A stretch of DNA of 64,000 nt from assembly GCA_964349365.1 (NCBI GenBank), contig CAYGFY010000005.1, positions 22,561-86,560 of the forward strand, given 5' to 3'. Made by a program: the position numbers and the translations under genes. How positions within the stretch are numbered: the stretch's first letter is position 1; the number at the start of each line of letters is the position of its first letter. The notes under the pieces were generated by a model. It was not told the DNA's origin and ran no database searches. It saw only the letters and a program-made list of their open reading frames with translations. Positions 2,029 through 60,316 of the stretch are shown in pieces. This DNA comes from an uncultured Bacteroidales bacterium. GTDB taxonomy: Bacteria; Bacteroidota; Bacteroidia; Bacteroidales; UBA7960.

Positions 2029-2907
2029 TTAGTTTCGTTTGTCCAAACCCCATGCAAGTTTGTTTCTTATGGTTCTGAAGAAGTCAAGGTGTTCAAGTGA
2101 AATCAAGTTAAGGTAAAAATCTTCTTTCTTTATGATTAGTTCAATACTTTCTGACATTGGCACCGATCGGGAGTCGAGCACTACCAGATAGTCCTGCAAA
2201 CGGCCGTTTATGGTTAGCCTTACCTCCGATGTATCGGGTATCACAACCGACCTTGCGGTGAGGTTGTGGGGTGCAATTGGTGTTATTACGAAACTTTGCG
2301 ATTTGGGCGAAATTATTGGCCCTCCACAGCTCAAGGAGTAACCCGTGGAGCCAGTAGGTGTTGCCACGATAAGACCGTCCGCCCAAAATGTGGCCAGGTA
2401 TTTGCCGTCAATGTGTGAGCTTATGGAAATCATTGACGAGGTGTCGCGCTTAACAACCGATAGTTCGTTAAGTGCAAAATTGTATTCTCCAAACAGATTT
2501 ATCGAAGTTTCGAGCCTGATAAGACTTCTTTTATCCAGCACGAATTGCTTGTTAATCAATGCGTTAACGGCCACATCAACTTCGTGGGTTGAAATTGCCG
2601 ACAAAAATCCAAGCCTGCCAGTATTTATTCCTAACACGGGAACGCCCGAATTTCCTATCAGCGTAATCGTATCGAGCAGTGTGCCATCGCCCCCAAAACT
2701 TACAAGGCAGTAAGTGTCCGAGGGTAATTGGTCTTTGTACTTGAAGGTTTTTACAGGTTTAGAAAACGAAAACCCCCTTGAAAGATGACGGTAGAAATCA
2801 TCAAATACGACAAACTGTGAAACCTCCCTTTCTAAACCTAAAAGCAGGGCACTTATCTGAGGGAAAAATTCTTGGTTGAATTCTCGCCCGAACAATGCGA
2901 TTTTCAT
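2029..2907 (-). CDS. nadK: NAD+ kinase
   Basis: Motifs GGDGTLL, NTGRLGFL and ADGLIVATPTGSTGYSLSCGGPI. ATG at 2907 (MKIALFG) is preferred over the extended ORF start at 3000, which overlaps rodA. Confidence 0.9.
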   Translation of the reverse strand: MKIALFGREFNQEFFPQISALLLGLEREVSQFVVFDDFYRHLSRGFSFSKPVKTFKYKDQLPSDTYCLVSFGGDGTLLDTITLIGNSGVPVLGINTGRLGFLSAISTHEVDVAVNALINKQFVLDKRSLIRLETSINLFGEYNFALNELSVVKRDTSSMISISSHIDGKYLATFWADGLIVATPTGSTGYSLSCGGPIISPKSQSFVITPIAPHNLTARSVVIPDTSEVRLTINGRLQDYLVVLDSRSVPMSESIELIIKKEDFYLNLISLEHLDFFRTIRNKLAWGLDKRN

Positions 2908-2971
2908 CTCTTTGTGGTTTTGGTGAATATCATTTTTGTTTTTTTCGAAGCAAGTAGTTGGAGATACTTGC

Positions 2972-4234
2972 TTACAAAACATCCATCCTTTGCATGTCAA
3001 GTTTTAGAAAAGTGAAAATCATTATTGAAAAGGCCAGTAAAGACGAACCGCCATAACTTAAAAGCGGCAGCGGGATGCCTATAACCGGCACCAATCCTAT
3101 TGTCATACCAATGTTCACTAAAAAATGGAAGAACAATATCGAAGCAATCGAATAGCCGTAAACTCTCGCGAAAACCGAACGTTGTCTTTCGGCCAACAAG
3201 ATGATTCGAGCTATAAGCCAAATGAAAAGGGTTATCACAGCAAAGGTTCCGAAAAACCCCCATTCTTCGCCCACGGTGCAAAAAATGAAATCGGTGCCTT
3301 GTGCGGGTACAAAATCGTAACGGGTTTGGGTGCCTTGGAGAAATCCCTTGCCAAACAACCCACCCGACCCAATTGCTATTTTGGATTGATGTAGGTTGTA
3401 GCCCGCACCCCTGAGGTCAACTTTTTCGTCGAGTAGGACTTCAATTCTTAGTTTTTGATGAGGTTGAAGAACATTGTCGTAAATGTAGTCAATTGAATAA
3501 ATATACGACGATAGCAGAACCAAAACCACAACAACTGCCTTCCAGGCATACCTCGTGTTTTTCAAAAAAAACATGACGAAAAGTGCAACAATGACAAGAG
3601 CCCCGATTATAATGAATCGGTCAAAAAGTAGCGAGAGCACGAAAAGGAAAACCATACTAATTACAAGTGCCACAACCCAGGCTTTAATGAAACCTTCGCG
3701 ATACAGAACAATTATAAAAGCACTAAAAACCAGTGCGGTTCCGGTATCATTTTGAAGTAGAATTAATGAAGCGGGAATTGAAAACAAAAGGGCTGCCAAA
3801 AGCTTGTTGTAAAAAACCAACTTGGTGGCGGAAACCACACCGAGGTATTTGGCAATAGCCAATGCCGTTGCGTATTTTGCAAATTCGGCAGGCTGGATTG
3901 CAATAGAGCCAATCTTGAACCATGATCTTGAGGCATTGACCACCGAACCAAAGAAAATCGTAAATACCAGAATCACAAGTAAGAAAACATATATAACCCA
4001 AGAAAAAGATGAAAAGAACCTTGCATCGAACAAAACTATTATTCCCCCGAGGGCCAATGAAATTCCTATGAAAATGGCTTGCCTCCCGTAGCTCTGGTTA
4101 AAATCAAAAATCGTTGCGTGGCCTTCTGGTATTGTAGCTGCCAAAATGTTAAGCCAGCCAAAAACGACCAATACCAAGAAAACAACCAGCAACTGCTTGT
4201 CGATTTTCGATGTTATTTTTTTTTGATCTACCAT
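2972..4234 (-). CDS. rodA: SEDS-family peptidoglycan glycosyltransferase RodA
   Basis: Polytopic membrane protein with IGSGGLFGKG, QGTDFIFCTVGEEWGF and GIPLPLLSYGGSS. It lies immediately downstream of PBP2, whose stop directly abuts the rodA ATG. Confidence 0.9.
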   Translation of the reverse strand: MVDQKKITSKIDKQLLVVFLVLVVFGWLNILAATIPEGHATIFDFNQSYGRQAIFIGISLALGGIIVLFDARFFSSFSWVIYVFLLVILVFTIFFGSVVNASRSWFKIGSIAIQPAEFAKYATALAIAKYLGVVSATKLVFYNKLLAALLFSIPASLILLQNDTGTALVFSAFIIVLYREGFIKAWVVALVISMVFLFVLSLLFDRFIIIGALVIVALFVMFFLKNTRYAWKAVVVVLVLLSSYIYSIDYIYDNVLQPHQKLRIEVLLDEKVDLRGAGYNLHQSKIAIGSGGLFGKGFLQGTQTRYDFVPAQGTDFIFCTVGEEWGFFGTFAVITLFIWLIARIILLAERQRSVFARVYGYSIASILFFHFLVNIGMTIGLVPVIGIPLPLLSYGGSSLLAFSIMIFTFLKLDMQRMDVL

Positions 4235-6253: not shown

Positions 6254-7654
6254 ATGAATGGTATATTCAAGTTCGTTTTAATGCTATGGGCCACTATTAC
6301 GTTGGCATCCGGTTTTTCTCAAGTGCAGGTGCCCAACGGCAATTTGGAAGTTTGGGTTGGTAATAGGCCACAAAACTGGAACACTTCAAACGACTTGACT
6401 CAAATCCCGTTTGTGGGTTTTCAGTCGGTTTTTAGAAGCACCGAGGCTTATCAGGGTCAATTTGCCGCTCGCATACGTACAGGGACATTGCTGGGCAACA
6501 CGGTTCCGGGCTACATTACCATTGGAGTTTTGAACGTAAACATTCAAGCCCCGGAGCAATCAACCATTACCGGGGGTCATCCCTTTACCTCAAGGCCCCT
6601 GCTACTTAGAGGTCATTACAAGTACTCCACCTCCGCAAACGATACCGGGTTGGGTGCTGTTATTCTATGGAAATATAACCCCCAGTCGGGCCAGCGTGAT
6701 ACTATTGCAGCTGGCGGCGGTTTCTTTACCCCCCAAGAACAATATGTTCAGTTTTCAATGCCAATCGTCTACTTGTCTAATCAAGACCCCGATACCCTCA
6801 ACACATTGTTTATGTCATCAAACTTTGAAACCATCACTTCGGGCTCAACTCTTTTTGTTGACAGCCTCCATTTTGTGTATGGTCAGGTTTCTTACATAGA
6901 CCTTGGCCCCGATGCCTATTTGTGTCCTGGCAAATCCATTACATTGGACGCCGGGCCCGGTTTTCAATCATACAACTGGGTAAGTATTGATGGGCTTGAA
7001 CCAATTGGTCAGGGTCAACAGTTGGTTGTTACAAAGCCTGGCAGATATGCGGTCGTGGCTTTGGACAGTGAGGGCTTGCCGGTATCAGGGTCAATTAGAA
7101 TTTTCGGGGCGCCAAGTCCATGGGTGTTCAATGTTGGCGGTGGCGGACCGTTTGCACCCCCTGCATCTGGTTCGGAGGTTATCCTAAGCGGAAGCCAAAC
7201 AGGAACCCGATACCGGCTTTTGCGCAATGAATTGCATGTCATGGAGATACCAGGCACCGGCTCGGCCATTTCCTTTGGCTTGCAGCCGGAAGGCGCTTAC
7301 TCCGTTAAGGCCATAAACACCGATCAGCACCAGTGCGAAATGATGATGATGGGCTCGGTTATTGTAACAAACGCAACGGCCATAAATGAAACAGTTGATG
7401 CCGAAGGGTTAATAATTTTTCCTAATCCCGGCAGAGATGTATTTACAATTGATACCGGTTTTAGAGACTCAAGTGGCTGGTTTGCGGTTTTTGGGCTAGA
7501 TGGAAAAACAACCACAAAAGGAGAAATCGAAGCTTTCGGCAAGGGTAAGTTTACGATTTCCCTGCCAGCCGAAGCCAAGCCCGGAGTTTATTTCATTAAA
7601 GTGGGGCTTTCAAACGGGTCAGTCCTTTCTGGCAAGTTCGTTGTGGCGAGGTAA
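6254..7654 (+). CDS. secreted protein with PCMD-like N-terminal domain, Ig-like repeats and a T9SS type-A C-terminal sorting domain
   Basis: Signal peptide MNGIFKFVLMLWATITLASG. The C-terminus LIIFPNPGRDVFTI...GVYFIKV...GKFVV is typical of a Por/T9SS secretion tail. The N-terminal domain assignment is tentative. Confidence 0.75.
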   Translation: MNGIFKFVLMLWATITLASGFSQVQVPNGNLEVWVGNRPQNWNTSNDLTQIPFVGFQSVFRSTEAYQGQFAARIRTGTLLGNTVPGYITIGVLNVNIQAPEQSTITGGHPFTSRPLLLRGHYKYSTSANDTGLGAVILWKYNPQSGQRDTIAAGGGFFTPQEQYVQFSMPIVYLSNQDPDTLNTLFMSSNFETITSGSTLFVDSLHFVYGQVSYIDLGPDAYLCPGKSITLDAGPGFQSYNWVSIDGLEPIGQGQQLVVTKPGRYAVVALDSEGLPVSGSIRIFGAPSPWVFNVGGGGPFAPPASGSEVILSGSQTGTRYRLLRNELHVMEIPGTGSAISFGLQPEGAYSVKAINTDQHQCEMMMMGSVIVTNATAINETVDAEGLIIFPNPGRDVFTIDTGFRDSSGWFAVFGLDGKTTTKGEIEAFGKGKFTISLPAEAKPGVYFIKVGLSNGSVLSGKFVVAR

Positions 7655-7724
7655 GCGCAAGTATCCAAAAAGCAATTTTTCAATTTTTTTCAATCGTTTA
7701 TTGCATCCAATTAATTTCCTGCAA

Positions 7725-8855
7725 ATGAAAATTATCGTCTTAGGTGCAGGTATGGTGGGGAAAGCCATTGCCATTGACCTTTCGGCCAAACATGAAGTTA
7801 CCTCTGTTGACATTGACCAATCCGCGCTTGATTATTTGGCCAAAAACTACCGTATGGAAACCTTCAGGGCAAATCTAATTGAAAAAGACTCCGTTGAAAG
7901 CTTGGTTTCGCCATTTGACGTGGTGATTTCGGCCGTGCCGGGTTTCATGGGTTTCGAAACCCTGCGCAGGGTAATTGAATGTGGCAAAAACGTTGTTGAC
8001 ATTTCGTTCATGCCCGAAGATTTTTTTGAACTTGACGGGCTGTCAAGGTCAAATGACGTAACGGCAATTGTTGATTGCGGGGTTGCCCCGGGTATGCCCA
8101 ACCTTATCATGGGTCGTTATGATGCCGAAATGGAAATTGACGATTTCGAGTATTTTGTTGGTGGGCTGCCCTTCGAAAAAGTTTACCCGTTTTACTACAA
8201 GGCTCCCTTTTCGCCCATTGATGTCATTGAAGAATACACTCGTCCGGCACGCTTCGTGGTTGACGGGAAAATTGTTGAAAAACCTGCAATGTCGGATGTT
8301 GAGATGCAGCACTTCAATGGCGTTGGTACATTAGAGGGTTTTCTCACCGACGGGCTAAGGTCGCTTCTTAAAACCATGTCTCACGTGCCCAACATGCGCG
8401 AGAAAACCCTCAGGTATCCAGGCCACGTGCAACTGCTGCAAGCCTTGAGGAAGGTTGGTTTTTTCGAAAACCGACCCATTGAGGTTGATGGGGTAAAGGT
8501 TAGGCCAATGGATTTTACCTCCAAGCTACTAACCCAAAACTGGAAGCTAGACCCATCGGAGCGCGAATTTACCGTAATGAGAATTGTTTTCAGGGGGCGC
8601 AAAAATGACAAAAATGTTGAGGTGGTTTATGACCTTTTCGACCAGTACGATGATGTTGACAAACTCTCATCCATGGCCAGAACCACAGGGTTTACAGCCA
8701 CGGCTTGCGCCGAGTTAATTGCAAGCGAAGGGTTAAACCTTAAAGGGGTATTACCCCTGGAGTTGATTGGCAAGAATGCTAATTATTTCCGGTTTGTTAT
8801 GGATTACCTTGGTGTTCGAAACATTGTCTATAAAAAGCAAGAAAGAATCTTTTAA
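7725..8855 (+). CDS. saccharopine dehydrogenase family NAD(P)-binding protein
   Basis: ATG at 7725 gives MKIIVLGAGMVGKAIAIDL, a Rossmann GxGxxG right at the N-terminus. CGVAPGM and the C-terminal Sacchrp_dh-like region are present. The ORF-track extension back to 7500 overlaps the upstream gene and is rejected. Confidence 0.8.
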   Translation: MKIIVLGAGMVGKAIAIDLSAKHEVTSVDIDQSALDYLAKNYRMETFRANLIEKDSVESLVSPFDVVISAVPGFMGFETLRRVIECGKNVVDISFMPEDFFELDGLSRSNDVTAIVDCGVAPGMPNLIMGRYDAEMEIDDFEYFVGGLPFEKVYPFYYKAPFSPIDVIEEYTRPARFVVDGKIVEKPAMSDVEMQHFNGVGTLEGFLTDGLRSLLKTMSHVPNMREKTLRYPGHVQLLQALRKVGFFENRPIEVDGVKVRPMDFTSKLLTQNWKLDPSEREFTVMRIVFRGRKNDKNVEVVYDLFDQYDDVDKLSSMARTTGFTATACAELIASEGLNLKGVLPLELIGKNANYFRFVMDYLGVRNIVYKKQERIF

Positions 8856-8865
8856 AAAGTTGCTG

Positions 8866-10836
8866 ATGAAAAGCAAACAACAGGCACGGGCCAATTACCT
8901 TGCCACAATGAAAGAAATTGGCTACATGCAGCGCAAGAAAGCCACGCAAGCCGACTACGACCGTATTGGTTTCATGTCGGGGCTAGAGGTTCACCAGCAA
9001 CTTGATACTGCCCAAAAGCTCTTTTGCCGATGCCCAACGGGCATTTATCAGTCAAACTGCGATTTTGACGCAGAAGTAATTCGACACATGCGACCAACCC
9101 TTAGCGAGTTAGGCGAATACGATGGCACTGCCCTAATGGAATTCAAAACTCGTAAAGAAATTATTTACAGGTTGAAGAACCCATCTACATGTACTTACGA
9201 GGTTGACGACACGCCACCATTTCCCATAAACAAAGAGGCAGTCGAAATGGCGATAAAAATATCGCACCTTAAAAAACTCAACATTGTGGGCGAGCTCCAC
9301 ATAACGCGAAAGCAATACCTTGACGGAAGCATACCTACTGGTTTTCAACGAACAGGAATAATTGGAGTTGAGGGCGAAATTGAACTAAAGAACAAAAGGG
9401 TAAGGCTAATCCAACTTAGTCTGGAAGAGGATTCTTGCCGCGAGATTTCTGATATAGGGCACACTCGAATTTACAAAACCGACAGGCTTGGTATGCCCCT
9501 AATCGAAACCGTAACATATCCCGACATGGTAAACCCAAACGAAGTTGCGGAGGCCTGTCAGGTAATAAGGTTCTTAAACCGCAGCTCAGGTTTGGTTAGA
9601 ACCGGAATTGGTGCTGCCAGACAAGATGTAAATGTGAGTTGCCGCGGCGGAACTAGAGTTGAAATAAAAGGGGTAGCTCGTATTAAATGGATTCCAGAGC
9701 TTACACATAACGAGGCCTTCAGGCAATGGGCATTGCTCAATATTAGAGAAAAGTTGCTCAAGAAAATTAAAAAACCAACCCAGTGGCAAATCAATTTCGT
9801 AAAGATTGAACCCAGCTCAATTGATTTCAAGTCTCCCCTGAAAAAAATAGCAAAGGAAAACGGCTATGAAATATATGCAGCCTGTTTGCCTGGTTTCAAC
9901 GGCTTGTTGTCGCACTTTACCCAACCCGGAAAAACTTTTGCCGACGAGTTTAGCGACAGGCTCAAAGTGATTGCTTGCATCGAAAAACCAAACTTTACGT
10001 GCAGTGAATCGCTTAACCCGATCGAGAGCGACGATTTTTTTGCACGCCTTAAAAAAATAACGGGAGCAAGAGCCAACGATCCAATTGTGGCGTTTTGGGG
10101 TCCACCCCAAGATATGACCACCGCAAAGGAAACCATAGAGGAAAGATGCCGAATGGCTTTCGAGGGCGTTCCAAACGAAACCAGAAAGTCTTTTGCAGAT
10201 GGAACCACTATTTTCGAGAGGGTTTTGCCAGGAGCTGACCGAATGTACCCCGACACCGATTCGCCGCCAATACCGCTCCACGAAGAGCAAATCAGAAAAC
10301 TTGCCGAGAACCTGCCAGTGGAAACAATCAAGGCATACCGCCAAATGCAGCAATGGGGTATGCCCGAAGATACATTTACTTACATCTTGAGGAACAACCT
10401 TTTCCAAATTTTGAAACAATTGGTAGAGGTGCAAAAACTCAACCCTGTTTTTGCGGCAACATTGCTGGGGCATAAATTACGTTACGAAGAAGGGCAGCAG
10501 CCCGTTTCCAAGGCTTTTCGCCACGAACAAATAATTGACCTGGTAAAAGAATGCAAGGTTCGAAATATAGATTTGGAGATTCTGAAACCCCTTTTACCAC
10601 TATTGTTATCGCACCCCAACATGGATTTCGACTCGTTGCTTGTTAGCATTAACTTCAAGAGAATTAAACCCGAAGAGATATTTTCTGGAATTAAGTTCTT
10701 GAAAAACAAGTACCTTTCAATTGGAAGAAAACTCGACTCCAAATCATCTACCAACTGGATAATGGGACAACTTGGGCCAAAGGCCCTGGGTAATATTCAA
10801 CTGGCCACTTTAAGAAAAACCATTGAAGAAAAATAA
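8866..10836 (+). CDS. gatE: Glu-tRNA(Gln) amidotransferase subunit E (archaeal-type GatE)
   Basis: DYDRIGFMSGLEVHQQLDTAQKLFCRCP at the N-terminus, then RKQYLDGSIPTGFQRT, LSLEEDSCR, DRLGMPLIETVT, RQDVNVS..GTRVEIKG and ETRKSFADGTTIFERVLPGADRMYPDTDSPPIPL. These are collinear with archaeal GatE as I recall it. ATG at 8866 lies 10 nt after the upstream stop. Confidence 0.85.
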   Translation: MKSKQQARANYLATMKEIGYMQRKKATQADYDRIGFMSGLEVHQQLDTAQKLFCRCPTGIYQSNCDFDAEVIRHMRPTLSELGEYDGTALMEFKTRKEIIYRLKNPSTCTYEVDDTPPFPINKEAVEMAIKISHLKKLNIVGELHITRKQYLDGSIPTGFQRTGIIGVEGEIELKNKRVRLIQLSLEEDSCREISDIGHTRIYKTDRLGMPLIETVTYPDMVNPNEVAEACQVIRFLNRSSGLVRTGIGAARQDVNVSCRGGTRVEIKGVARIKWIPELTHNEAFRQWALLNIREKLLKKIKKPTQWQINFVKIEPSSIDFKSPLKKIAKENGYEIYAACLPGFNGLLSHFTQPGKTFADEFSDRLKVIACIEKPNFTCSESLNPIESDDFFARLKKITGARANDPIVAFWGPPQDMTTAKETIEERCRMAFEGVPNETRKSFADGTTIFERVLPGADRMYPDTDSPPIPLHEEQIRKLAENLPVETIKAYRQMQQWGMPEDTFTYILRNNLFQILKQLVEVQKLNPVFAATLLGHKLRYEEGQQPVSKAFRHEQIIDLVKECKVRNIDLEILKPLLPLLLSHPNMDFDSLLVSINFKRIKPEEIFSGIKFLKNKYLSIGRKLDSKSSTNWIMGQLGPKALGNIQLATLRKTIEEK

Positions 10837-11106
10837 ATCAGTTTTCGCATGCAAAAGCATTTTTTACTAACAACTTTAACACACCAAATTAAGTTCTTCT
10901 TTGTTTTTTGTTGCTTCTTTGGGCCTTACGCGCAATCAATAAAAGTTGCAGCACGGGATTTTTTGTATAATTTCACAAATTTAGCTTCATAAATCTTAAA
11001 AAGTTTCTACATGTATCTGCATTTCAACTTGCTGGCCAATTTGCGAAAGCTGAACACTTGGTTCCAAAAATTGAAACAATTCCGTCAACTCAATAAATAA
11101 AACAAA

Positions 11107-12492
11107 ATGAGCGAAGACTTTTTTCAGGGATACAAGGGCAAGGCACTGGAGGTGTTAAAAAAATACAATGTACGTGTTTGGGGACAAACAACCGTTGAAA
11201 CGACACGGGGCAAGTTTGTGGGGACAGTGCTGCCCAGATCCGAAAGCGATGATGACCGCCACATAGTTCTAAAGATCCCCACGGGTTACAACGTAGGGGT
11301 GGCAATTGATACCATTCTCGACATGAAGGAAACGGGATACAAGAAGGCTAACTACAAGATTCCCGAGAAAGAATTTCCCTACACCAAAGGGTTGCCTTCT
11401 GTAAAGTTAATCGGCACGGGAGGAACAATTGCCTCGAGACTCGATTACCGAACCGGTGCCGTTATTCCGGCATTTTCGCCCGGCGAACTTTATGGTGCAG
11501 TACCAGAACTTGCCGAAATTTGCAACCTTACCACCGAAAAGGTTTTTGCCGTTTTTAGCGAAAACATGGGTCCTTCGCAATACAAGAAGCTTGCGGTGGC
11601 AATAGGCCAGGAAATTGAAAACGGAATAAATGGAGTAGTAATCGGGCACGGTACCGATACCCTTCACCATACCGCTGCCGCGCTAACATACATGGTTCAA
11701 AACCCTCCTGTTCCTATCGTTCTGGTTGGTTCGCAAAGGTCATCAGACAGGCCGTCGAGCGATGCTGCACTTAACCTGATGCATGCATGCTATACTGCCG
11801 GACACGGCGATATTGCAGAAATAATGGTTTGCATGTTTGGTCCAACATCTGATGAGTATGCATTTCTGCATCGAGGAACCCGCGTTCGCAAAATGCACTC
11901 TTCATATCGCAGCACATTCAGAACCTTGGGCGAAACGCCCCTGGCAACCGTTACGAGGCAGGGATTGAAGCCAATCAAAAATAATTACAATCACAGACGC
12001 AAGGATCGTAATGTAATGATAATGCCGTACTTCGAAGAAAAGGTGGCCATGATTTATTACTATCCAAATATGATGCCCGATATGATTGACTCTCTTGTTG
12101 AAAACGGATATAAGGGCATAATCATTGCTGGCACCGGCCTTGGACACGTTAACAAACCATTGTATCCGGCACTCGAAAGGGCTAAAAAGGCTGGCGTTGC
12201 TGTTTATATGACCGTGCAAACACTTTGGGGTTACGTGCAAATGTTTGTTTACGAAACAGGACGCGAAATGATGGCTCTTGGCGTAATCCCAGGAGAGAAC
12301 CTATTGCCAGAGGTGGCCTACATAAAGTTAGGTTGGGCTCTTGGTCAAACAAACGATCTCGAAAAGGTAAAGGAAATTATGCTTAAACCAATTTGCGATG
12401 ACATAACCCCACGCGAGCCATACAACGGGTATCTTATTTACCAGGGGGGTGTACCAGAGGTTGAAGATTTTATTAAGAATTTCAGGAAATAG
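11107..12492 (+). CDS. gatD: Glu-tRNA(Gln) amidotransferase subunit D (archaeal-type GatD)
   Basis: GatD-type N-terminal beta domain (GKFVGTVLPRSESDDDRHIVLKIPTGYNVGVAID) followed by an asparaginase fold with GTGGTIASRLDYRTGAV and HGTDTLHHTAAAL. Confidence 0.85.
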   Translation: MSEDFFQGYKGKALEVLKKYNVRVWGQTTVETTRGKFVGTVLPRSESDDDRHIVLKIPTGYNVGVAIDTILDMKETGYKKANYKIPEKEFPYTKGLPSVKLIGTGGTIASRLDYRTGAVIPAFSPGELYGAVPELAEICNLTTEKVFAVFSENMGPSQYKKLAVAIGQEIENGINGVVIGHGTDTLHHTAAALTYMVQNPPVPIVLVGSQRSSDRPSSDAALNLMHACYTAGHGDIAEIMVCMFGPTSDEYAFLHRGTRVRKMHSSYRSTFRTLGETPLATVTRQGLKPIKNNYNHRRKDRNVMIMPYFEEKVAMIYYYPNMMPDMIDSLVENGYKGIIIAGTGLGHVNKPLYPALERAKKAGVAVYMTVQTLWGYVQMFVYETGREMMALGVIPGENLLPEVAYIKLGWALGQTNDLEKVKEIMLKPICDDITPREPYNGYLIYQGGVPEVEDFIKNFRK

Positions 12493-12582
12493 CGAGATAA
12501 TGTGGTGATTTGAGAATTTGAGAATGTGAAGATTAGCGAAATTGCCAGCCAGTTCAAGCGCCAAAATACGCCATTTAACAAT

Positions 12583-12615
12583 AAAAGGGAGCCATTCGCT
12601 CCTTTTATTTTTTTC
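12583..12615 (+). terminator. rho-independent terminator downstream of gatD
   Basis: aaaagGGAGCcattcGCTCCttttattttttt: a GC stem extended by A/T pairs and followed by a T-run. Confidence 0.6.
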
Positions 12616-12697
12616 AGGAAGGGTTATTGCTCCAATTTTGCACCGAAAACAGAATCAAAAAAGCAAAAATTTTAAATATCCCAAAAACCTTAGAAAA

Positions 12698-13156
12698 ATG
12701 AAAACAACAAGAATTTTTTTCACCGCCGCTGCTTTTGCAATTTCAAGTTTGGTTGCATTCTCTGCATCAAACAATCTTCAAGAAGGCTCAATCTACCCTG
12801 GTGCTTTTGCAAGCATCAGTAGTAAGGCTTACTTTGAAATTCCATTCACCCTGGTTTACGATCATTTTATGGTTGTAGTGGCAACAATAAATGGAGAAAG
12901 GCTCAACTTGGTTTTAGATGAAGGAGCTCTCGAAACGACATTAGATTGGAAAAAGGCTCAGCATCTCGGGCTTGGAAGAACTGCAAGTTTTTCCATTGGC
13001 GAACAAACGTTTAACGAGACACCCTCATTCGCTGAATTCGATGCAGTAAGAAACTCAGGGCTAATTATAGATGGTGTGGTGGGATCTTCAATTTTCGACA
13101 ACTACGATGTGGAGTACGATATGGTTAAAGGAGTAATAATATGCAGACCCTTTTGA
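12698..13156 (+). CDS. small secreted protein with a retropepsin-like (aspartyl protease) fold, non-canonical DEG in place of DTG
   Basis: Signal peptide MKTTRIFFTAAAFAISSLVAFSA. INGERLNLVLDEGALETTL and DGVVGSSIFDNYDVEYDMVKGVI resemble the bacterial retropepsin-like family pattern. ATG at 12698 is preferred over 12542. Confidence 0.55.
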   Translation: MKTTRIFFTAAAFAISSLVAFSASNNLQEGSIYPGAFASISSKAYFEIPFTLVYDHFMVVVATINGERLNLVLDEGALETTLDWKKAQHLGLGRTASFSIGEQTFNETPSFAEFDAVRNSGLIIDGVVGSSIFDNYDVEYDMVKGVIICRPF

Positions 13157-13392
13157 TAGGAGTTTTAAGTTTTAAAGTTGAAGGGTTTATAGGCATGTAA
13201 AAATATGAGTTGAGGAGTTGGGAGGTTGAGGAGTTTGGAAGGAATTAGAACAACCAACTTGTAAATCATAAACCACTAACAGCCCTAATTCTTGACCCAT
13301 AATAGATAAGCACACAAGTCTGATAATTATCGAATTTTCAAATTAACTAATTGCCTAGTTGTTTCTAATTAATCGCATCCCTCTGGATACCT

Positions 13393-15632
13393 ATGAAAAC
13401 AAAATCCATATATTTGCACCATAACAGAAACAACGGAGAAATGTTTGGTTTGAAAATTAGCATCAGCGATGTCGCTCTTGATCAAGAGCGGCTCAAAGGG
13501 GCAAGGTTGTCGGCAAACCTTAGGTGGGTTTTAATCGGAATTATTATTTCTCTTTTGGCCTTGCAATCCATAATGGGTCATTGGGATGTTTCGAAACATG
13601 CCCTCGTCTTCCTGACGGCCTACACTCTCTTCAATATCTTTTTGTGGATATCGGCAAGAAGGGGATACGACCCGAGGTATCTGAGGTTCCTGGCAGCCAC
13701 GCTTGATACGATTTTCATCACATTCCACATATTCGGGATGGCGGTTGTCCATGACCCAGTAGCCGCAACAGCAGCCTCAACAATCCTCTTTTTGCCGCTT
13801 TTCTTTTTGTTGCACACATTCAGGCTGGATAGAGGCTTGCTTGTTTACATAATAATTATTTCACTGGTAGGTTTCAATTTTACTTACTTTTTCCAGCATT
13901 CGCGAACTCCCGAAATATTAAACCAGTATTTATCATTGTCGCCAATTGCCCATGTTTTCAAATCGGTTTACATTGCATTCATTGGGCTTTTGTGCATTTA
14001 CCTTCAATATTCTATGCTTGTTTTCTTGCAGAAGCAACTTGATGAGGCCAGGGAAAAGGCAAGGCTTGACGTTGCAATAAACCTTGAGCAGGAAAAGAGC
14101 TTGATGAGCAAGCAGCTTTTTGAGAGAGAAAGGCAACAAAACATGGAACTTGCCGAAGAGATTCGCAAGAAAGACGAGTATGCCGATAAACTCAAAGAAG
14201 CACAAGCAATGGTAAACACCATAATGTCAAACCTTGTTGGAGCTGTTTCTCGCTGCTTGCACGATGACCGGTGGACAGCTAAGTTTTTAGTAAAAAAATT
14301 GAGGACATAACAGGGTATCCTTCAGCTGATTTCATAGACAATAAGGTTATAAGCTTCTCGGATATAATGCTTGATGAAGACAAGGAAAGAGTTAGGAATA
14401 GCATTGGCGAATCGGTTTTGTCTAAAAAACCATATTCCATCGAGTTTCGAATTAGGCATAGGGATGGCCGTATTATCTGGGTTAATGAAAACGGGCAACC
14501 TGTTTTTGACCACCAAGGTAACCTTGTTTATCTTGATGGAATAACAACCGATATAACCGAGAAAAAACATGCCGAACAATCGTTCAAGGAGCTTACCGAC
14601 TTCCTGCCCCAAACTGTATTCGAAACCGACAAAGAGGGGTACTTGCTTTTCCAGAACAATGCTGGTTTGGAATTCTTTGGCGAAGGCCAACCCGATGAAA
14701 GCGGGAGGATTCACACCTCCCAGTTTTTTGAGCAAAGTTTTAGGGATAGGACGCTCGAAAATATTAATAAGCCCGTAAGGTTTGAAGGTGACAAGATTTT
14801 TTCGGCCGAGGCTAACGCCATAAGGAAGGACGGATGCATTTGTCAGGTAATGATTTACAGTACAGCAATGGCACGCGATGGAAAGCTAATTGGCGAAAGG
14901 GGAATAATAGTTGACATAAGCAACATCAAGAATGCCGAAAAGGAACTGAAGATGGCAAAACAAGATCTTGAAAAACTCAACCAAGACCTTGAAAGGAAAA
15001 TTGAAGAGAGGACATTAGAACTAACAGAGGCCAACACTCAACTCTTGAACCTTCAAAAAGAAAACCTGCAATCGCAGTTCGAGGTTTTGAACCAACAAGT
15101 GAACCCGCATTTCTTGTTCAATAGCCTTAGTGTCCTAACATCATTGATAAAGGTTGACCCCGATCTGGCCGAAACGTTTACCGAAAGGCTTTCAAAGGTT
15201 TACAGGTACGTTTTGGAAAACAAGGACAAGGATTTTGTTTCAATCGAAACCGAAATGGAATTCTTGAGGGCTTACATATTCCTTTTGAGAATTAGATTCT
15301 CAAGCAAGGTTGTAGTGGACATTGATTTTGACGAAAAAAAAATGGATGCATACGTTGCTCCCCTTGCATTGCAATTGCTTATCGAAAATGCAATCAAGCA
15401 CAACACTTTCAGCCGCAAAAGTCCCTTAATTGTTAAGATGTTTGTTGACAGCGAAAACTATCTAAATGTCATTAACAATTTACAAAGTAGGGAAACCAGA
15501 ATGAACTCTACTGGAATTGGGCTTGTAAACATTACTAAAAGATACGCGCTTTTATCAGAAATGCAACCTGAATTCGAGATTACCGAAAATGAATTCATAG
15601 CTCGAATTCCTCTTATTAACAAGAATATTTGA
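13393..15632 (+). pseudogene. LytS/YehU-family sensor histidine kinase (membrane domain, coiled coil, 2 PAS, His_kinase, HATPase) interrupted by a frameshift
   Basis: ORF 13393..14310 ends ...GAVSRCLHDDRWTAKF(LVKKLRT*). The next frame continues from 14283 as (V)FSKKIEDITGYPSADFIDNKVISFSDIMLDEDKERV...EFRIRHRDGRIIWV, so a single PAS domain is split at the T5 run 14284..14288. Downstream, QVNPHFLFNSL and the HATPase region identify the LytS type. Confidence 0.8.
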
Positions 15633-18200: not shown

Positions 18201-18209
18201 ACAAAAGAG

Positions 18210-18294
18210 TACCCGGAGCCGGGCTCGAACCGGCACGGCCGCAATGGCCACAGGATTTTAAGTCCTGGGTGTCTACCAATTCCACCATCCGGGC
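18210..18294 (-). tRNA. tRNA-Leu (anticodon TAA), type II with long variable arm
   Basis: Hand-folded sequence: GCCCGGA-TG-GTGGAATTGGTAGACAC-CCAGGA CTTAAAA TCCTG-TGGCCATTGCGGCCGTG-CCGGTTCGAGCCCGG-CTCCGGGT-A. Anticodon loop is C-T-TAA-A-A. No encoded CCA. Confidence 0.9.
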
Positions 18295-18362
18295 ACTTGT
18301 TGCAAAAAACCGACTACCATTTACAAAAAAACCTCTTTTTTATCAGAGGCTTGGTAGTGTAG

Positions 18363-18435
<73 letters not shown>

Positions 18436-39282: not shown

Positions 39283-40758
39283 CTAATATGCTCTTGCAAA
39301 AACAACTCTTTGGGTGGAAGGCTTGCCTGAAAAAATGCAGTTTCCTTCTTCCTTGTCGTTATTAAGCGGTATGCACCTGATGGTTGCCTTGGTTGCATCC
39401 TTGATCTTTTGCTCGGTTTCGGCTGTGCCATCCCAATGCGCAAGGACGAACCCCCCTTGATCGTCAAGTATTTCAACAAACTCCTCCAAACTGTTGGCAA
39501 CCCTGGTGTTTTCCTCCCTGAATTTTAACGCTTTTTGAAACAGGTTATTTTGTATTTGGTCGAGCAACGAAACCACGTGGTCGCCAATATTGGCAAATGG
39601 GCAGAGCTCCTTTTGAAGGGTGTCGCGCCTTGCTATTTCCAAGGTGTTGTTTTCAACATCACGAGGGCCAATTGCTATGCGTACGGGCACACCCTTGAAC
39701 TCGAATTCAGAAAACTTCCAGCCGGGTTTGTAAGTGTCCCTGTCGTCAAATTTTACCGAAATTCCTTTTTCGGCGAGTTTTTTTCTTGCCAAATCACATC
39801 TCTCGAATACAAGGGCCTTTTCGTCATCGTTGCGGTAAATGGGCACTATTGCAACTTGTATCGGGGCAAGTTTAGGCGGCAATACTAGGCCGTGGTCGTC
39901 GGAGTGGGCCATTATTAGTGCCCCCACAAGCCTTGTTGATACGCCCCATGATGTTGCCCAAACGTGTTCAAGCTTTCCTTCGCTACTGGTGAACTTTACA
40001 TCAAAAGCCTTGGCAAAATTTTGCCCCAAAAAGTGAGATGTTCCTGCTTGCAATGCCTTTCCATCTTGCATCAAGGCTTCAATACAATACGTTTCAACCG
40101 CACCGGCAAAACGTTCGTTGGCCGATTTGGTGCCTTTCAAAACAGGTATTGCCATAAAGTTTTCGGCAAAATCTGCATAAACCTCCAGCATTCTTTCGGT
40201 TTCTTCAATGGCTTCTTGTTCGGTGGCATGGGCGGTGTGCCCCTCTTGCCAGAGGAACTCCGAAGTGCGCAAAAACATTCTGGTGCGCATTTCCCATCTC
40301 ACCACGTTGGCCCATTGGTTTATGAGTATGGGTAAATCGCGGTATGACTGAATCCATTTTCTGTACGTGTCCCAAATAATGGTTTCGGATGTTGGCCTGA
40401 TAATCAACTCCTCCTCGAGCTTGGCAGTTTCATCAACCACAACACCCTTGCCGTTGGGGTCGTTCTTTAGCCTGTAGTGTGTAACCACGGCACACTCTTT
40501 GGCAAATCCTTCAACGTGGTCGGCCTCCTTGCTCAAGAATGATTTCGGAATGAATAACGGGAAGTAGGCATTTGAGTGCCCGGTGTCCTTAAACATCTTG
40601 TCAAGTGCAGCTTGAATCTTTTCCCATATGGCATACCCGTAAGGCTTAATGACCATACAACCCCTAACTGCCGAATTCTCGGCCAAACCAGCCCTTTGAA
40701 CTATGTCGTTGTACCATTTTGAATAATTTTCCTCGCGCGTCGAAAAATCTTTTGCCAT
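39283..40758 (-). CDS. proS: proline--tRNA ligase (archaeal/eukaryotic-like type, usual in Bacteroidota)
   Basis: 491 aa with no bacterial-type insertion domain. [12 protein letters not shown] and FRPTSETI-like class II motifs, and a C-terminal ...QRVVFARAY. Confidence 0.9.
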
Positions 40759-40883
40759 AACCCTGTTTTTGGTATAGAATTTGCAATCAAAATACTGAAA
40801 ATCGGCGCAAAATTACTAAAATTATGCCACTTAAGAATTTTTACTAACTTTGTTTGATAAACAAAAACCATGGAGGATTTGTC

Positions 40884-42470
40884 ATGAAAACCATTTTTAA
40901 ACTGACTTTTGTGGTACTCCTGGCTCTGGCAGGATGTTCTACATCGTATTACTCCACCCGAACCATTGATGATGTGTACTACACACCCAGACAAACAAGG
41001 GTAACCACGGTAGTTACAGAAACCAAAACAATCCAATATGCTGAACCAGCAACCCAATTGGTTTATGCAGAGGAAACCGAAGATTATTATTACAACGATG
41101 AAGATTCGGCAACCTACTACGATGATGGTGAACTAGAATACGTTAACCAACCCGTTACTAAGAATTTTTACGATTATTCATACTCCGCACGTATCCGAAG
41201 GTTTCACCGCCCGAACAACAATTGGTCGTATTACGATCCTTGGTACACGAATATGTACTGGTATTCACACAATCCTCACTACTATGGTGTTAGCATTTAT
41301 ATGGGTTACGGCTCACTGGGCTATCACTATCCCGGATTTTCGGTTTTTCATCCAACCTTTTCGTGGCACAACTGGCACACCCCGTTTTTCTACAGCTATC
41401 ACAGGCCTTGGCACTCGTGGGGCAGTTGGAGCCGTTGGAACTCTTGGTTTAGATGGAACCACTGGGCTGGACATCATCATTGGGGACATTGGAGCCACAA
41501 TTTTTGGAGCGGATATCACCTAGGTTTTAACCAAGGGTTTCACGCTGGTTTGCACCATGGTTGGTGGTCCCCCTACACCTTTCAATACAACTATAACAGT
41601 TTTGACCGTAGCAACTATTTTTATGGCCACAGGGATGCCACAGGAGGTAGGATTAATTTAGGCAGGGATGGATCCGGAAAGGGCTTGTTTGCTTCAGAAT
41701 TTGAGCGGGCAAGGATTGAAAGGCCATCTGAATTTCGCCACAACAGGGAAGGAAGGACGGAACGTGGAGGTCGCGATTCCAATTCGCGCGATGAAAGAAC
41801 AGGCACTTCTACCCGCGCCGAACGTCCGGAAGCGGCCCGTGAGACCCGTCCCGAAACTCGCCCCGAGCGTCAGGAATCAACCCGTGATGACAGAACCGGT
41901 ACCTCGACTCGCACCGAGCGCCCCGAAGCTCGCCCGGTTGCCCGCCCCGAGCGTCAGGAATCAACCCGTGATGATAGAACCGGTACCTCGAACCGCCCCG
42001 AGGCTGCCCGCGAGGCGCGGCCCGCAACCAGGCCCCAAGCCCCTGAAGCACCCCGCCCCGAGCGCCCCAGCGTAGAAAGAGAGGATAATAACATTCAACA
42101 ACAAAGAATTGAAAGGCCACTTAACACACCTGCACGAACCAGTGAACCTCCTCAAAGAGAGAGGCCAAGGACTTACACGCCACCACAACAGCAACAGCCC
42201 TCGAGCAACAGAGAGTATAGCAGGCCGCAAACCGAAAGGCAGCCTACAGCAAGCCCTCCCAGCCAAGCAGCCCCTTCAAGAACCGAAAAAAGACAAAGTG
42301 AACCTCCTAGATCGGCAGCACCTAATTACACACCCAGTAGCACCCCGCAGAGGTCATCACCCAGTTATACCCCGAGCAGCAGCCCCTCCAGAGAGTCTTC
42401 AACCCCGTCAAGGTCAAGCGGTAGTTCTTCCTCGTCGAGCGAAAGGGGAGGAAGCGGAAGGAGGGAATAG
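40884..42470 (+). CDS. low-complexity lipoprotein: Tyr/Asp-rich, then Trp/His-rich block, then Arg/Glu/Pro/Thr-rich repeats, then Ser/Pro-rich tail
   Basis: Lipobox LLALAGCS after ATG 40884. One uninterrupted frame runs to 42470 and is followed by a strong terminator. Other frames are also open here because of compositional bias. Confidence 0.7.
   Translation: MKTIFKLTFVVLLALAGCSTSYYSTRTIDDVYYTPRQTRVTTVVTETKTIQYAEPATQLVYAEETEDYYYNDEDSATYYDDGELEYVNQPVTKNFYDYSYSARIRRFHRPNNNWSYYDPWYTNMYWYSHNPHYYGVSIYMGYGSLGYHYPGFSVFHPTFSWHNWHTPFFYSYHRPWHSWGSWSRWNSWFRWNHWAGHHHWGHWSHNFWSGYHLGFNQGFHAGLHHGWWSPYTFQYNYNSFDRSNYFYGHRDATGGRINLGRDGSGKGLFASEFERARIERPSEFRHNREGRTERGGRDSNSRDERTGTSTRAERPEAARETRPETRPERQESTRDDRTGTSTRTERPEARPVARPERQESTRDDRTGTSNRPEAAREARPATRPQAPEAPRPERPSVEREDNNIQQQRIERPLNTPARTSEPPQRERPRTYTPPQQQQPSSNREYSRPQTERQPTASPPSQAAPSRTEKRQSEPPRSAAPNYTPSSTPQRSSPSYTPSSSPSRESSTPSRSSGSSSSSSERGGSGRRE
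41788..42030 (+). repeat. in-frame tandem repeats (84-nt / 28-aa period) inside the low-complexity gene
   Basis: ccccgagcgtcaggaatcaacccgtgatga[c/t]agaaccggtacctcga occurs at 41861 and again at 41945. Protein units are RPERQESTRDDRTGTS(T/N)R..., preceded by a degenerate unit RDERTGTSTRAERPEAARETRPET. Confidence 0.8.
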
Positions 42471-46139: not shown

Positions 46140-47306
46140 ATGAGCGAAAATAAAAAAATAAAAAAGGTTGACTACATCTTTGCCAAAGATACCCCGAGCA
46201 TGGACATTCTGGCATCGACCCTCAAAAGAGACAAAGATCAGTTTATTAACGAGTTGATAAGTTCAGGCTTGAGGGGTCGCGGGGGAGCTGGATTTCCAAC
46301 CGGATTGAAGTGGAAGTTCACCAAAGGTATTACCGGCTCCGAAAAGTACGTAATTTGCAATGCCGACGAAGGTGAGCCCGGCACTTTCAAGGATAGAGTG
46401 ATATTGCAAGAAGTACCTTGCAAGGTTATTGCCGGTATGGCATTGTGCGGGCACATGATTGGATCGAAGCAGGGATTCATTTACCTCAGGGGCGAATATA
46501 CGTGGATGAGGGCACACTTGCAGAATAAAATTGACGAGATGCACGAAGAGTTTAAGAAACTAAACCTTGACTTCACCGTGGAAATAAGGATGGGTAGCGG
46601 TGCCTACGTTTGTGGTGAGGAAACCGCCCTAATCGAGTCAATGGAGGGCAAGAGGGGCGAGCCAAGAAACAAACCGCCGTTTCCGGTGGTGTCTGGGTTT
46701 AGAAACAAACCAACTGTCGTAAACAACGTCGAAACCCTGGTTTATGCCTTGATCATTGCAAGTATTGGAGCCAAGCAGTTCAAGTCTTTGGGTACCGCAG
46801 ATTCTGCCGGGTCAAAACTGCTTTCCGTATCAGGCGATACCCACAAGCCTGGAGTTTACGAACTCGAGCTTGGAATGAAACTATCAGACTTCGTTGATGA
46901 ATTTGGCGATGGCGACACCAAGGCAGTTCAGGTTGGAGGGGCATCCGGGTTTTGTGTACCACGAAGGAAGTTTAAAGAAACAATCATTGGCTTCGAAGGT
47001 ATTCCCACGGGTGGCTCAATGATGCTGTTTAACAGTCATAGGTCAATGTACAACGTGCTGCACAATTATCTCGAGTTCTTCAACGAAGAAAGTTGCGGAC
47101 AATGCACCCCGTGCAGGGTTGGCTGCCAGCAGCTAATTCATGGAATAGAGGCAATAAAGAATAAGAAAAAGCCACCAAGGTATCTCAGCGATTTGGTAAG
47201 GCTCTCGGAAACCATGCGTATTTCGTCAAAATGCGGTTTGGGGCAATCAGTGGGCAACGGCTTCAAGTCTATCGTTGAGGAGTTTAAGGAAGAAATAATT
47301 TACTAA
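46140..47306 (+). CDS. hydB: NuoF-like flavoprotein subunit of [FeFe]-hydrogenase (FMN/NAD(P)H site plus one [4Fe-4S])
   Basis: GLRGRGGAGFPTGLKW, NADEGEPGTFKDR, YVCGEETALIESMEG and ESCGQCTPCR...SKCGLG. It is only 388 aa, with no extra ferredoxin-like or [2Fe-2S] domains. Confidence 0.85.
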   Translation: MSENKKIKKVDYIFAKDTPSMDILASTLKRDKDQFINELISSGLRGRGGAGFPTGLKWKFTKGITGSEKYVICNADEGEPGTFKDRVILQEVPCKVIAGMALCGHMIGSKQGFIYLRGEYTWMRAHLQNKIDEMHEEFKKLNLDFTVEIRMGSGAYVCGEETALIESMEGKRGEPRNKPPFPVVSGFRNKPTVVNNVETLVYALIIASIGAKQFKSLGTADSAGSKLLSVSGDTHKPGVYELELGMKLSDFVDEFGDGDTKAVQVGGASGFCVPRRKFKETIIGFEGIPTGGSMMLFNSHRSMYNVLHNYLEFFNEESCGQCTPCRVGCQQLIHGIEAIKNKKKPPRYLSDLVRLSETMRISSKCGLGQSVGNGFKSIVEEFKEEIIY

Positions 47307-47324
47307 ACCATAAACCACATTGAC

Positions 47325-49106: not shown

Positions 49107-49121
49107 TTCAATCGTGGTTAA

Positions 49122-49554
49122 TTAAACAAGAGCGTACTGCAAGCGACCTAATTCTCCTTGAAGGACGTTGCTTTTAAGTGCCCCCATACCCGCCAATACT
49201 AGGATTCTTTTAGAAGATATTTTTGTGTATTGCAAACCCTTATCGGTTATGACCGAGTCATGTGGCAGCCAGCCACCAAAGTCACTTCCGGGCAGGCCAA
49301 GCGGAAATCCGAAAAAAATCGGCATTTGTTAAGAAACCAGTGGTGTTAACGACACCATCAAAAATTGAAAATCGTTCGAAAAAAGCCAGAAATAGGGTAA
49401 ATCGTTTATTTTCAATAAATTTGGCAACCCCCTCCATCAATGACTCGTGTTTTAATAACACGCCCTGGTTTGTAGTAAGGTCGCCCCTTTGAGGCTCCAA
49501 GGTTGGGGGGGGGTATTTTTTTTTAACACATAGCCGTTGCTTCGCATTGACCAA
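49122..49554 (-). pseudogene. possible decayed gene remnant (two overlapping ORF fragments in different frames)
   Basis: ORFs 49282..49554 and 49122..49325 (minus) abut at an A7/T7 run (49312..49318). A 1-nt shift there would join ...TGFLTNADFF to GFPLGLPGSDFGGWLPHD.... There is no recognisable family and no good start. Confidence 0.25.
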
Positions 49555-49963
49555 GGCTAAAATATTTTGCCCTTAAGGGCGAGAAGCCAAAAGCAACAAT
49601 TGATATTTAATGACCACAAATAACAAATAGGCCATACGACAACAATGGATAATTTAAATCGACAATAAAAACCCACCCCCGCTTCAGCTTACAACCCATA
49701 ACTCCGCCTGCCTTGTATTTTACTCGGCAACTGGCGGACAAGTTACAGATTGCAACCCCAATAAACATCATAAATATCACAAACCCCGTAAGCTCGATAA
49801 GCCAAACATGCAAGCTCCCAAGCTTTATTCAACCTCCAACGCATAAAAATATTTGGGATACAAAATACCCCATTAAACTTGTCGCTATTTTCACTAACTT
49901 TGGTGGTTAAAAATGCCGTGCAAGAAAAACTGCAAAGCTGCAAGTCTTTAAAATGATGCTCAA

Positions 49964-51397: not shown

Positions 51398-51705
51398 GGT
51401 TTTATAATTTTTCGATATTGAAGCTGGTTTTTAATTAGAACGCTGTTGTTGCAGATAACCCAAACGGCGAAACGCTAATGGTCGCTGATTTTAACATCAT
51501 TGCTTTGTGAAACCTTGTTATAAAACCTTGAAAAACCTTGTGCTACAGTTTTTTAACCATACCACATGACACCCTGAGAAGAAAAAAAACGCCAAAACAG
51601 CCCTTTGTTTACACACAGATTTATTTCCCAAACTTTTATGCTTGCAAAAGTGAGACCTGAATTCTAAACCTGTTTTTTGTTACACCGAATAAAGCAATTT
51701 GATTA

Positions 51706-52905: not shown

Positions 52906-52916
52906 AATTGCTCGCG

Positions 52917-60309: not shown

Positions 60310-60316
60310 GATTGTT

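Follow-up and report, generated by a model that had tools for sequence, protein, structure and literature searches.

GatDE, the two-subunit amidotransferase that makes Gln-tRNA(Gln) from Glu-tRNA(Gln), has been described as confined to Archaea and even as an archaeal signature protein (PMC2330236, PMC9499178), and it was still so described in reviews of 2021 and 2022. Its restriction to Archaea has been used to argue that GatDE co-evolved with archaeal tRNA(Gln) and in this way blocked the acquisition of glutaminyl-tRNA synthetase (GlnRS) by archaea (PMC2330236, PMC8007984, PMC9499178). The restriction does not hold. A stretch of 64,000 nucleotides from an uncultured Bacteroidales bacterium (contig CAYGFY010000005.1 of assembly GCA_964349365.1, positions 22,561 to 86,560; called the window here) carries gatE (8866..10836) and gatD (11107..12492), both on the forward strand and in a bacterial host context, and the pair belongs to an entire clade of bacterial GatDE. 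The importance of the finding rests with that clade and not with the locus, which is one ordinary, already automatically annotated member of it.

Three described systems are close enough for comparison. The first is archaeal GatDE itself, known from the structures of the Methanothermobacter thermautotrophicus (2D6F) and Pyrococcus abyssi (1ZQ1) enzymes. Its GatE subunit binds Mg2+ through three residues, H15, E157, and E184 in M. thermautotrophicus, and mutation of any one of them abolishes both kinase and transamidase activity; its GatD subunit has a threonine nucleophile and a Thr-Lys-Asp triad; and the enzyme depends on A1-U72, a base pair of archaeal tRNA(Gln), and reads the D-loop as well (PMC2330236). 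The second is bacterial GatCAB, which performs the same chemistry, a tRNA-dependent kinase coupled to a glutaminase by an ammonia tunnel (PMC2330236). GatB is a paralogue of GatE, and the two have in common the cradle domain, the Mg2+ ligands, and a YqeY-like tail. The Staphylococcus aureus enzyme reads U1-A72 on tRNA(Gln), the elements being reported as conserved in bacteria with indirect pathways, and similar elements are used for tRNA(Asn) (PMC2330236). Unlike GatDE, GatCAB also makes Asn-tRNA(Asn). The third is type I L-asparaginase (AnsA), whose fold and catalytic residues are those of GatD; GatD differs in its extra GatD_N domain and in that its gene is always paired with gatE.

How do the two genes of the window compare? 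The first open reading frame (ORF) encodes a kinase/transamidase subunit of 656 amino acids (aa), read from an ATG at 8866. Independent gene calls take the same start, and the frame is already open from a TTG at 8767. The ORF has neither an internal stop nor a frameshift, and its translation contains GLEVHQQLDT..KLFCRC, RKQYLDGSIPTGFQRT, and ETRKSFADGTT..RMYPDTDSPPIPL. The GatE equivalog model TIGR00134 gives it 395.4 bits (E = 3.6e-118) against a cutoff of 319.55, in an alignment spanning positions 3-620 of the 622 in the profile, while every GatB model falls far under its cutoff, the best reaching 135.6 bits where 314.8 are needed. A search of sequences in the PDB gives the same answer: the two archaeal GatDE entries are the best solved relatives of both window proteins, with 2d6f_C at the top for GatE (307 bits, aligned as far as residue 616 of 619) and GatB chains at 63 bits or less, through the cradle domain alone. 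The first ORF is a true GatE, not a GatB.

The architecture agrees. The domains of the window GatE follow one another as catalytic cradle, AspRS/GAD-like insertion, helical domain, and YqeY-like tail. A Pfam scan of the ORF detects GatB_N. The insertion, at about residues 300-435, aligns to 2d6f_C and 1zq1_C, and Pfam GAD (PF02938), which is recorded in several members of the bacterial clade, is not detected in the window GatE. The tail is present, as judged by the extent of the 2d6f_C alignment and by a helical tail (473-655) predicted with a local distance difference score (pLDDT) of about 90. The AlphaFold2 model as a whole (pLDDT 83.4, predicted template modelling score 0.80) contains the cradle, an alpha/beta insertion domain of high confidence, and a long helical C-terminal part. 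Submitted to Foldseek, it finds 1zq1_C (E = 1.6e-40, template modelling score 0.78) and 2d6f first, with GatB chains at 1e-20 or weaker, so that the GatE chains stand 20 orders of magnitude ahead. There are weak matches to AspRS besides, no more than would be expected from a GAD-like insertion.

The second ORF encodes an asparaginase-fold glutaminase subunit of 461 aa that begins with the domain specific to GatD. It too lacks internal stops and frameshifts, and its translation includes GTGGTIAS and HGTDT. Both GatD equivalogs recognize it with ease (NF003217, 490.4 bits against a cutoff of 310; TIGR02153, 488.4 against 324), Pfam finds GatD_N (42.1 against 25.7) followed by Asparaginase and Asparaginase_C, and in the PDB search 2d6f_A reaches 385 bits where plain asparaginases reach at most 129. 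The protein also passes the asparaginase subfamily model TIGR00519 (369.8 bits against 260.5), and the GatD-specific models lie about 120 bits above it. With a GatD_N domain and an adjoining gatE, it does not qualify as a stand-alone AnsA. It is a true GatD, not an ordinary asparaginase. The original prediction, made from the letters of the DNA and their translations, had named an intact 656-aa GatE and an intact 461-aa GatD on the strength of the motifs given above, and had proposed that profiles of GatB and AnsA be set against those of GatE and GatD. The two proteins, motifs and all, are just where it placed them, and they side with GatE and GatD by a long way.

The residues on which catalysis depends are all there. 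In alignment, the Mg2+ ligands H15, E157, and E184 of M. thermautotrophicus GatE are H43, E187, and E214 of the window protein; their equivalents are conserved in 65-66 of 67 GatE sequences of the bacterial clade, and in archaeal sequences as well. A further 63 columns of GatE are nearly invariant in bacteria and archaea alike. On the side of GatD, T101, T177, D178, and K254 of the M. thermautotrophicus protein, which I take to be the numbers of its nucleophile and triad residues, align to T107, T183, D184, and K262, and all four are identical in each of the 11 GatD sequences aligned (ten bacterial and the M. thermautotrophicus reference).

Set beside archaeal GatDE, then, the window pair has the same two subunits, the same order of domains, full-length alignments, identical Mg2+ ligands and Thr/Thr-Asp-Lys residues, the same predicted fold, and adjacent genes. 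The similarity is about 31-34% identity for GatE in structural alignments and 46% for GatD against that of M. thermautotrophicus. The pair differs from the archaeal enzymes in its bacterial host, in a 29-aa N-terminal helix on GatE that is missing from the M. thermautotrophicus protein, in six residues of the cradle specific to the bacterial clade, and in the tRNA(Gln) it has to recognize, which is presumably bacterial, with U1-A72 in place of A1-U72. It differs from GatCAB in the AspRS/GAD-like insertion of GatE, in having an asparaginase-fold GatD rather than an amidase-fold GatA, and in having no GatC. Neither gatA nor gatC adjoins gatE in the window; the neighbor is gatD.

It is the distribution of the pair that removes it from the realm of curiosities. 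A word-indexed search with the window GatE gave at least 8000 matches, and the best 120 of these are all full length, 62-100% identical to the query, and, where an organism is named, solely from metagenome-assembled genomes (MAGs) called Bacteroidales, Bacteroidia, Bacteroidota, or Bacteroides. More than 120 clusters lie at 62-85% identity, and NCBI already labels the named close matches 'Glu-tRNA(Gln) amidotransferase subunit GatE'. The named MAG proteins in NCBI and IMG (e.g. P0011, P0012, P0038, and P0108) belong to the same orthologous group as the window pair; their GatE is 62-85% identical, gatD adjoins gatE, and the closest lineages have the flanking genes in common as well. The only real difference between the window and these relatives is a long spacer between the two genes, 270-300 bp in the window and in L017. 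Bacterial gatE and gatD thus have names in the databases, given by automatic annotation. As a clade they are apparently undiscussed: no paper on bacterial GatDE was found in full-text literature searches, whose coverage leaves subscription journals largely outside.

More distant relatives extend the clade well beyond Bacteroidota. At E <= 1e-30, an exhaustive search of representatives clustered at 50% identity yielded 593 clusters. Next after the cluster of the window itself come about 30 full-length clusters, 41-54% identical to it, and all of their named members and genomic contexts are bacterial. This band includes a Deltaproteobacteria MAG and a CSSED10-310 bacterium, and a profile search of it adds Calditrichia, KSB1, Aminicenantes, Candidatus Desulfaltia, Latescibacteria, Krumholzibacteria, one Clostridiales MAG, and sequences labeled simply 'bacterium'. 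The wider clade also takes in Desulfobacterota MAGs. Three neighborhoods from the 41-54% band contain such things as sigma-54 activators, RND/OEP efflux systems, HPr kinase with phosphotransferase system genes, Lnt, Mur ligases, and MraZ/RsmH. Among the rest of the sequences, every named member is archaeal (Heimdall-, Thor-, and Lokiarchaeota, Diapherotrites, Thermoprotei, and unclassified entries labeled 'archaeon').

A scan of genome contigs with six exact peptide patterns taken from the window GatE found only two loci, one in an Ignavibacteria MAG (L001) and one in a Zixibacteria MAG (L002), both 55-56% identical to the window. Despite the different labels, the GatE proteins of these two are nearly identical, and the loci have in common the order methyltransferase, gatE, gatD, a 340-aa ORF, and a CstA-like gene; probably one of the two taxonomic labels is an error of binning or classification. 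The corresponding scan of metagenome contigs, which was not an alignment query, found no GatE locus, just four weak matches (23-36% identical), mostly on short contigs.

The two genes travel as a unit. In all 11 distinct loci that were read, gatD lies directly downstream of gatE, and across the 10 loci aligned (45 pairs) the pairwise identities of GatE and of GatD are correlated at r = 0.95. No other neighbor is conserved across the bacterial clade. The idea, implied by the original prediction, that the locus is an unusual event is not supported: orthologues are common and vertically inherited in the Bacteroidia lineage, which the prediction itself had listed among the findings that would refute it, gene order persists at 66-67% identity, and the clade spans many phyla.

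A few members depart from the usual form. One protein of 943 aa (P0165) joins the catalytic and insertion part of GatE (about residues 17-473) to a complete GatD (511-907, with GatD_N and both asparaginase domains), apparently without the helical and tail region of GatE; the protein may be a fusion that exists in nature, or else an artefact of assembly or deletion. Another, of 781 aa (P0189), is a GatE 35% identical to that of the window, with a score in the archaeal range and an extra N-terminal domain of about 165 aa resembling AAA_18/AAA_17 kinases. Finally, a 987-kb haloarchaeal replicon, the Natrinema thermotolerans plasmid CP031304.1, has at 2501-3804 (L016) a GatE-like region with no listed gene, which matches only residues 27-469 of the window protein, and in two pieces. 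It may be a pseudogene or may simply have been omitted from the PLSDB gene table.

The history of the bacterial clade was sought in a neighbor-joining tree of 160 GatE and GatB sequences, built from Kimura-corrected distances with two column sets, each bootstrapped 100 times; three GatB from annotated plasmid records served as the outgroup, and the GatE-like ORF of Natrinema was added to the archaeal sequences. The window GatE and those from Bacteroidota-like, Ignavibacteria, and Zixibacteria sources form a clade at 100% bootstrap. The 67 bacterial GatE sequences all group as a single clade in 95% of replicates when 623 columns are used, and in 80% when the 441 columns alignable with GatB are used instead. 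In most of those replicates (89 of 95 and 75 of 80, respectively) the sister of the bacteria comes solely from a set of ten sequences that includes those named Heimdall-, Thor-, and Lokiarchaeota. The position of the bacterial clade beside Asgard-like sequences suggests a single ancient transfer from an archaeon to a bacterium.

I propose that the window pair is a working tRNA-dependent amidotransferase of the GatDE type, that it belongs to a bacterial clade founded by ancient transfer, and that it has been inherited vertically within the Bacteroidia lineage. As a whole this reading is probable, though well short of secure. Within it, the most likely function, judging from sequence, would be the transamidation of Glu-tRNA(Gln). 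GatD would hydrolyze glutamine or asparagine by means of the T107 nucleophile and the T183/D184/K262 triad, releasing ammonia. GatE would bind Glu-tRNA(Gln) with its cradle, insertion, helical, and YqeY-like tail domains, would use ATP, at the Mg2+ site formed by H43, E187, and E214, to phosphorylate the glutamate on the tRNA at its gamma-carboxyl group, and would then amidate the activated intermediate with ammonia channeled from GatD, giving Gln-tRNA(Gln). Most likely the clade would trace back to a single ancient event in which an archaeon related to Asgard lineages passed the pair to a bacterium, after which it would have descended vertically, with some spread to other bacteria. What is established for the pair is its identity, its intactness, its catalytic residues, its fold, the purifying selection on it, its distribution, and the co-inheritance of the two genes; I infer its activity, its tRNA substrate, its role in physiology, and when and in which direction the transfer took place.

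Several things weigh against this proposal. The model PRK04028/NF003107 gives the window GatE 455.1 bits, 0.9 bit under its cutoff of 456, and Pfam GatB_Yqey, detected in many members of the clade, is below threshold here. Six positions of the cradle (window residues 75, 88, 110, 115, 191, and 205) are fixed differently in bacteria and archaea. Bacterial tRNA(Gln) typically has U1-A72, which implies either that recognition by GatE has changed or that the tRNA(Gln) of the host is unusual. Cultured Bacteroidota normally have GlnRS, and with it GatDE would be redundant. The phylogeny was obtained by neighbor joining alone, a simple method, with GatB as a distant outgroup and with archaeal sequences drawn only from the clusters closest to the query.

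The strongest rival is that the enzyme is GatDE with an altered specificity, whose substrate would be Asp-tRNA(Asn), alone or together with Glu-tRNA(Gln), or else something other than a tRNA. It would remain an amidotransferase, either dependent on tRNA or activating a carboxylate in some other way. The original prediction had foreseen something similar, a GatDE paralogue recruited for a different amidation. A long branch separates bacterial from archaeal GatE, along with the six fixed differences in the cradle, and since tRNA(Gln) and tRNA(Asn) of bacteria both have U1-A72, a GatE re-tuned to that pair might accept the two. ARAGORN found no tRNA-Gln in the window or in the related loci scanned with it, the larger ORFs of the window that were scanned (a part of the total) include no glnS or gatB, and the flanks of related loci, of which roughly 200 kb were read, contain no glnS, gatCAB, or tRNA-Gln linked to the pair; gltX and asnS are likewise missing from the scanned ORFs and from those flanks. 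Against a new substrate stands how much has been kept: the Mg2+ site, the 63 near-invariant positions common to both domains of life, the insertion, and the D-loop-binding tail. The insertion domain of GatE has moreover been modeled to clash with AspRS in a transamidosome (PMC2330236), and neither a new domain nor a conserved new neighbor points to another pathway. Retention of all the catalytic residues and tRNA-binding domains favors the canonical reaction over a recruited paralogue, and I regard a changed specificity as unlikely, though deserving of a hearing.

A second rival leaves the function as proposed and alters the origin: bacterial GatDE would descend from LUCA, the last common ancestor of all life, and would have disappeared from most bacteria instead of being taken up from archaea. 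That GatCAB and GatDE were both in LUCA is a proposal reported in reviews (PMC9499178). The clade is deeply diverse (of the best 150 clusters at 50% identity, no fewer than 33 are full length and belong to it), and a midpoint-rooted tree divides into a bacterial and an archaeal half into which all named members fit. The rooted tree says otherwise, insofar as the Archaea are monophyletic in merely 1-2% of replicates with the three GatB outgroups, and the sister of the bacteria is Asgard-like and nothing else in the great majority given above. Yet the position of the root is unstable between the two column sets, and fast-evolving archaeal sequences pulled towards the GatB outgroup could mimic archaeal paraphyly; these cautions, with the simplicity of the method, are why the LUCA alternative is retained at all. 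The distribution is also awkward for it, patchy in bacteria, mostly in the FCB (Fibrobacteres-Chlorobi-Bacteroidetes) superphylum with scattered phyla besides, and the branching within the clade ignores the relationships among phyla. An old endowment from LUCA seems to me quite improbable. Ancient transfer from an Asgard-related archaeon, the origin I prefer, has a parallel in the archaeal-type genes for ether lipid synthesis already reported in bacteria of the FCB superphylum (PMC7852524).

Whatever its ultimate source, the pair in the window is no recent arrival; its descent within the Bacteroidia lineage is vertical, as judged by several kinds of comparison. Eleven contigs in ENA, Logan, and NCBI, derived from differing sources and samples, encode an identical GatE, with the same neighboring genes where these were compared, and gene order is conserved in relatives whose GatE is 85% (L017), 67% (L007), and 66% (L006) identical to it. 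The original prediction had named a chimeric assembly as something that would undo it; repeated assembly of the same contig and synteny in relatives show no sign of one. It had also proposed comparing composition with the flanks, and here no foreign signature appears: the guanine-plus-cytosine (GC) content is 0.441 for gatE and 0.464 for gatD, where the genes of the window average 0.448 (standard deviation 0.026), and in the distance of their codon usage from the window mean the two rank 9 and 23 among 38 genes. Against L017 the ratio of nonsynonymous to synonymous divergence (dN/dS) is 0.065 for gatE, 0.033 for gatD, and 0.14 for the upstream neighbor, values that are approximate owing to a dS of 0.9-1.3, close to saturation. 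Both genes are under strong purifying selection.

These results dispose, so far as sequence alone allows, of the weakest rival, an artefact or a very recent event, which has the textbook expectation of an archaeal GatDE in its favor and nothing else, and to which I give practically no credence: chimeric assembly and archaeal contamination are rejected by the repeated identical contigs and the gene order common to relatives at 66-85% identity, recent horizontal transfer by native GC and codon usage, and a pseudogene or decaying remnant by the lack of frameshifts and internal stops and a dN/dS of 0.03-0.07, and no mobile-element genes flank the pair. The prediction's other suggestion, an inter-domain transfer kept under selection, comes through in part. 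Purifying selection is there and an ancient transfer is plausible from the neighbor-joining trees; an isolated or recent event it was not. The phylogeny it had called for, with archaeal sequences included, does put bacterial GatE beside Asgard-like sequences, as one large bacterial clade rather than a lone import.

What would follow for the general picture of GatDE? The broader claim would be that GatDE is no archaeal signature at all, that an old bacterial clade, derived by transfer from an Asgard relative, depends on it chiefly or entirely for its Gln-tRNA(Gln), and that either its GatE has been re-tuned or the host tRNA has co-adapted. So much taken together I can offer only tentatively, at somewhat less than an even chance. 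If it is true, then the clade covers much of the FCB superphylum together with Aminicenantes, Desulfobacterota, and others, in parallel with the archaeal-type lipid genes of FCB bacteria (PMC7852524). GatDE in many bacterial lineages amounts to a natural experiment on ideas that presumed it to be confined to archaea. It makes testable how GatE reads a bacterial tRNA(Gln), whether GatDE coexists with GlnRS or GatCAB or replaces them, and whether its source was Asgard-like or LUCA.

The surroundings of the pair are as bacterial, and as much like Bacteroidota, as the original prediction held. The flanks encode BamA, UppS, DUF6089, NAD kinase, RodA, PBP2, a PAS histidine kinase with a LytTR regulator, OmpH, and LepA, and farther off in the window are a protein with a type B sorting domain of the type IX secretion system, a GldE-like protein, a PheT of bacterial type, and prolyl-tRNA synthetase (ProRS). 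Immediately upstream, at 7725..8855 on the forward strand, is a gene of the saccharopine dehydrogenase family (Pfam Sacchrp_dh_NADP and Sacchrp_dh_C) that ends 10 bp ahead of the ATG of gatE and may be co-transcribed with it. Its score is well under the cutoff for carboxynorspermidine synthase. The gene precedes gatE in the window and in L006, L007, and L017, and is absent from L001, L002, L005, L009, L010, L011, and L012. It was considered as a conserved functional partner and rejected, given its absence from seven of the 11 loci; it is a lineage-specific neighbor.

The spacer between gatE and gatD (10837..11106) is unusually long and AT-rich, 270 bp at 32% GC. That of L017 (8044-8343) is 300 bp, and in the nine other loci the two genes are separated by -68 to +44 bp. 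In a BLAST search of the window and the loci, the spacer matched nothing but copies of itself in L003 and L004, and it is unique within the window. An Rfam scan of 7400-13200, the spacer included, gave no match. The spacer may be an internal promoter or regulatory region specific to the lineage. After gatD, an intergenic hairpin with a T-run (12584..12606, forward strand), terminator-like by match to a consensus alone, would be the probable end of the transcription unit.

Farther downstream, at 18209-18435 on the reverse strand, is a pair of tRNA genes, tRNA-Leu(TAA) and tRNA-Gly(GCC), that lies downstream of gatD in L006 and L007 also; its conservation supports vertical inheritance of the whole region.

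Three ORFs of the window had no Pfam match: 13393-14310 (305 aa), 58945-60336 on the reverse strand (463 aa), and 40854-42470 (538 aa). The last of these has no NCBIfam match either, and its GC content, 0.513, is the highest in the window.

The ProRS gene (39283-40758, reverse strand) is matched by the proS_fam_I model TIGR00408 at 567 bits, where other proline--tRNA ligase models reach 135 bits at most. The family is presumably the archaeal/eukaryote-like type of ProRS, in which case GatDE would not be the only translation enzyme of archaeal appearance in this genome.

Lastly, the window contains an [FeFe]-hydrogenase cluster at 46140-54005, made up of a NuoF-like flavoprotein, a group A6 NADH-dependent hydrogenase (894 bits), a radical-SAM/BATS protein resembling HydG, HydF, and a second radical-SAM protein resembling HydE. 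The host is an anaerobic fermenter.

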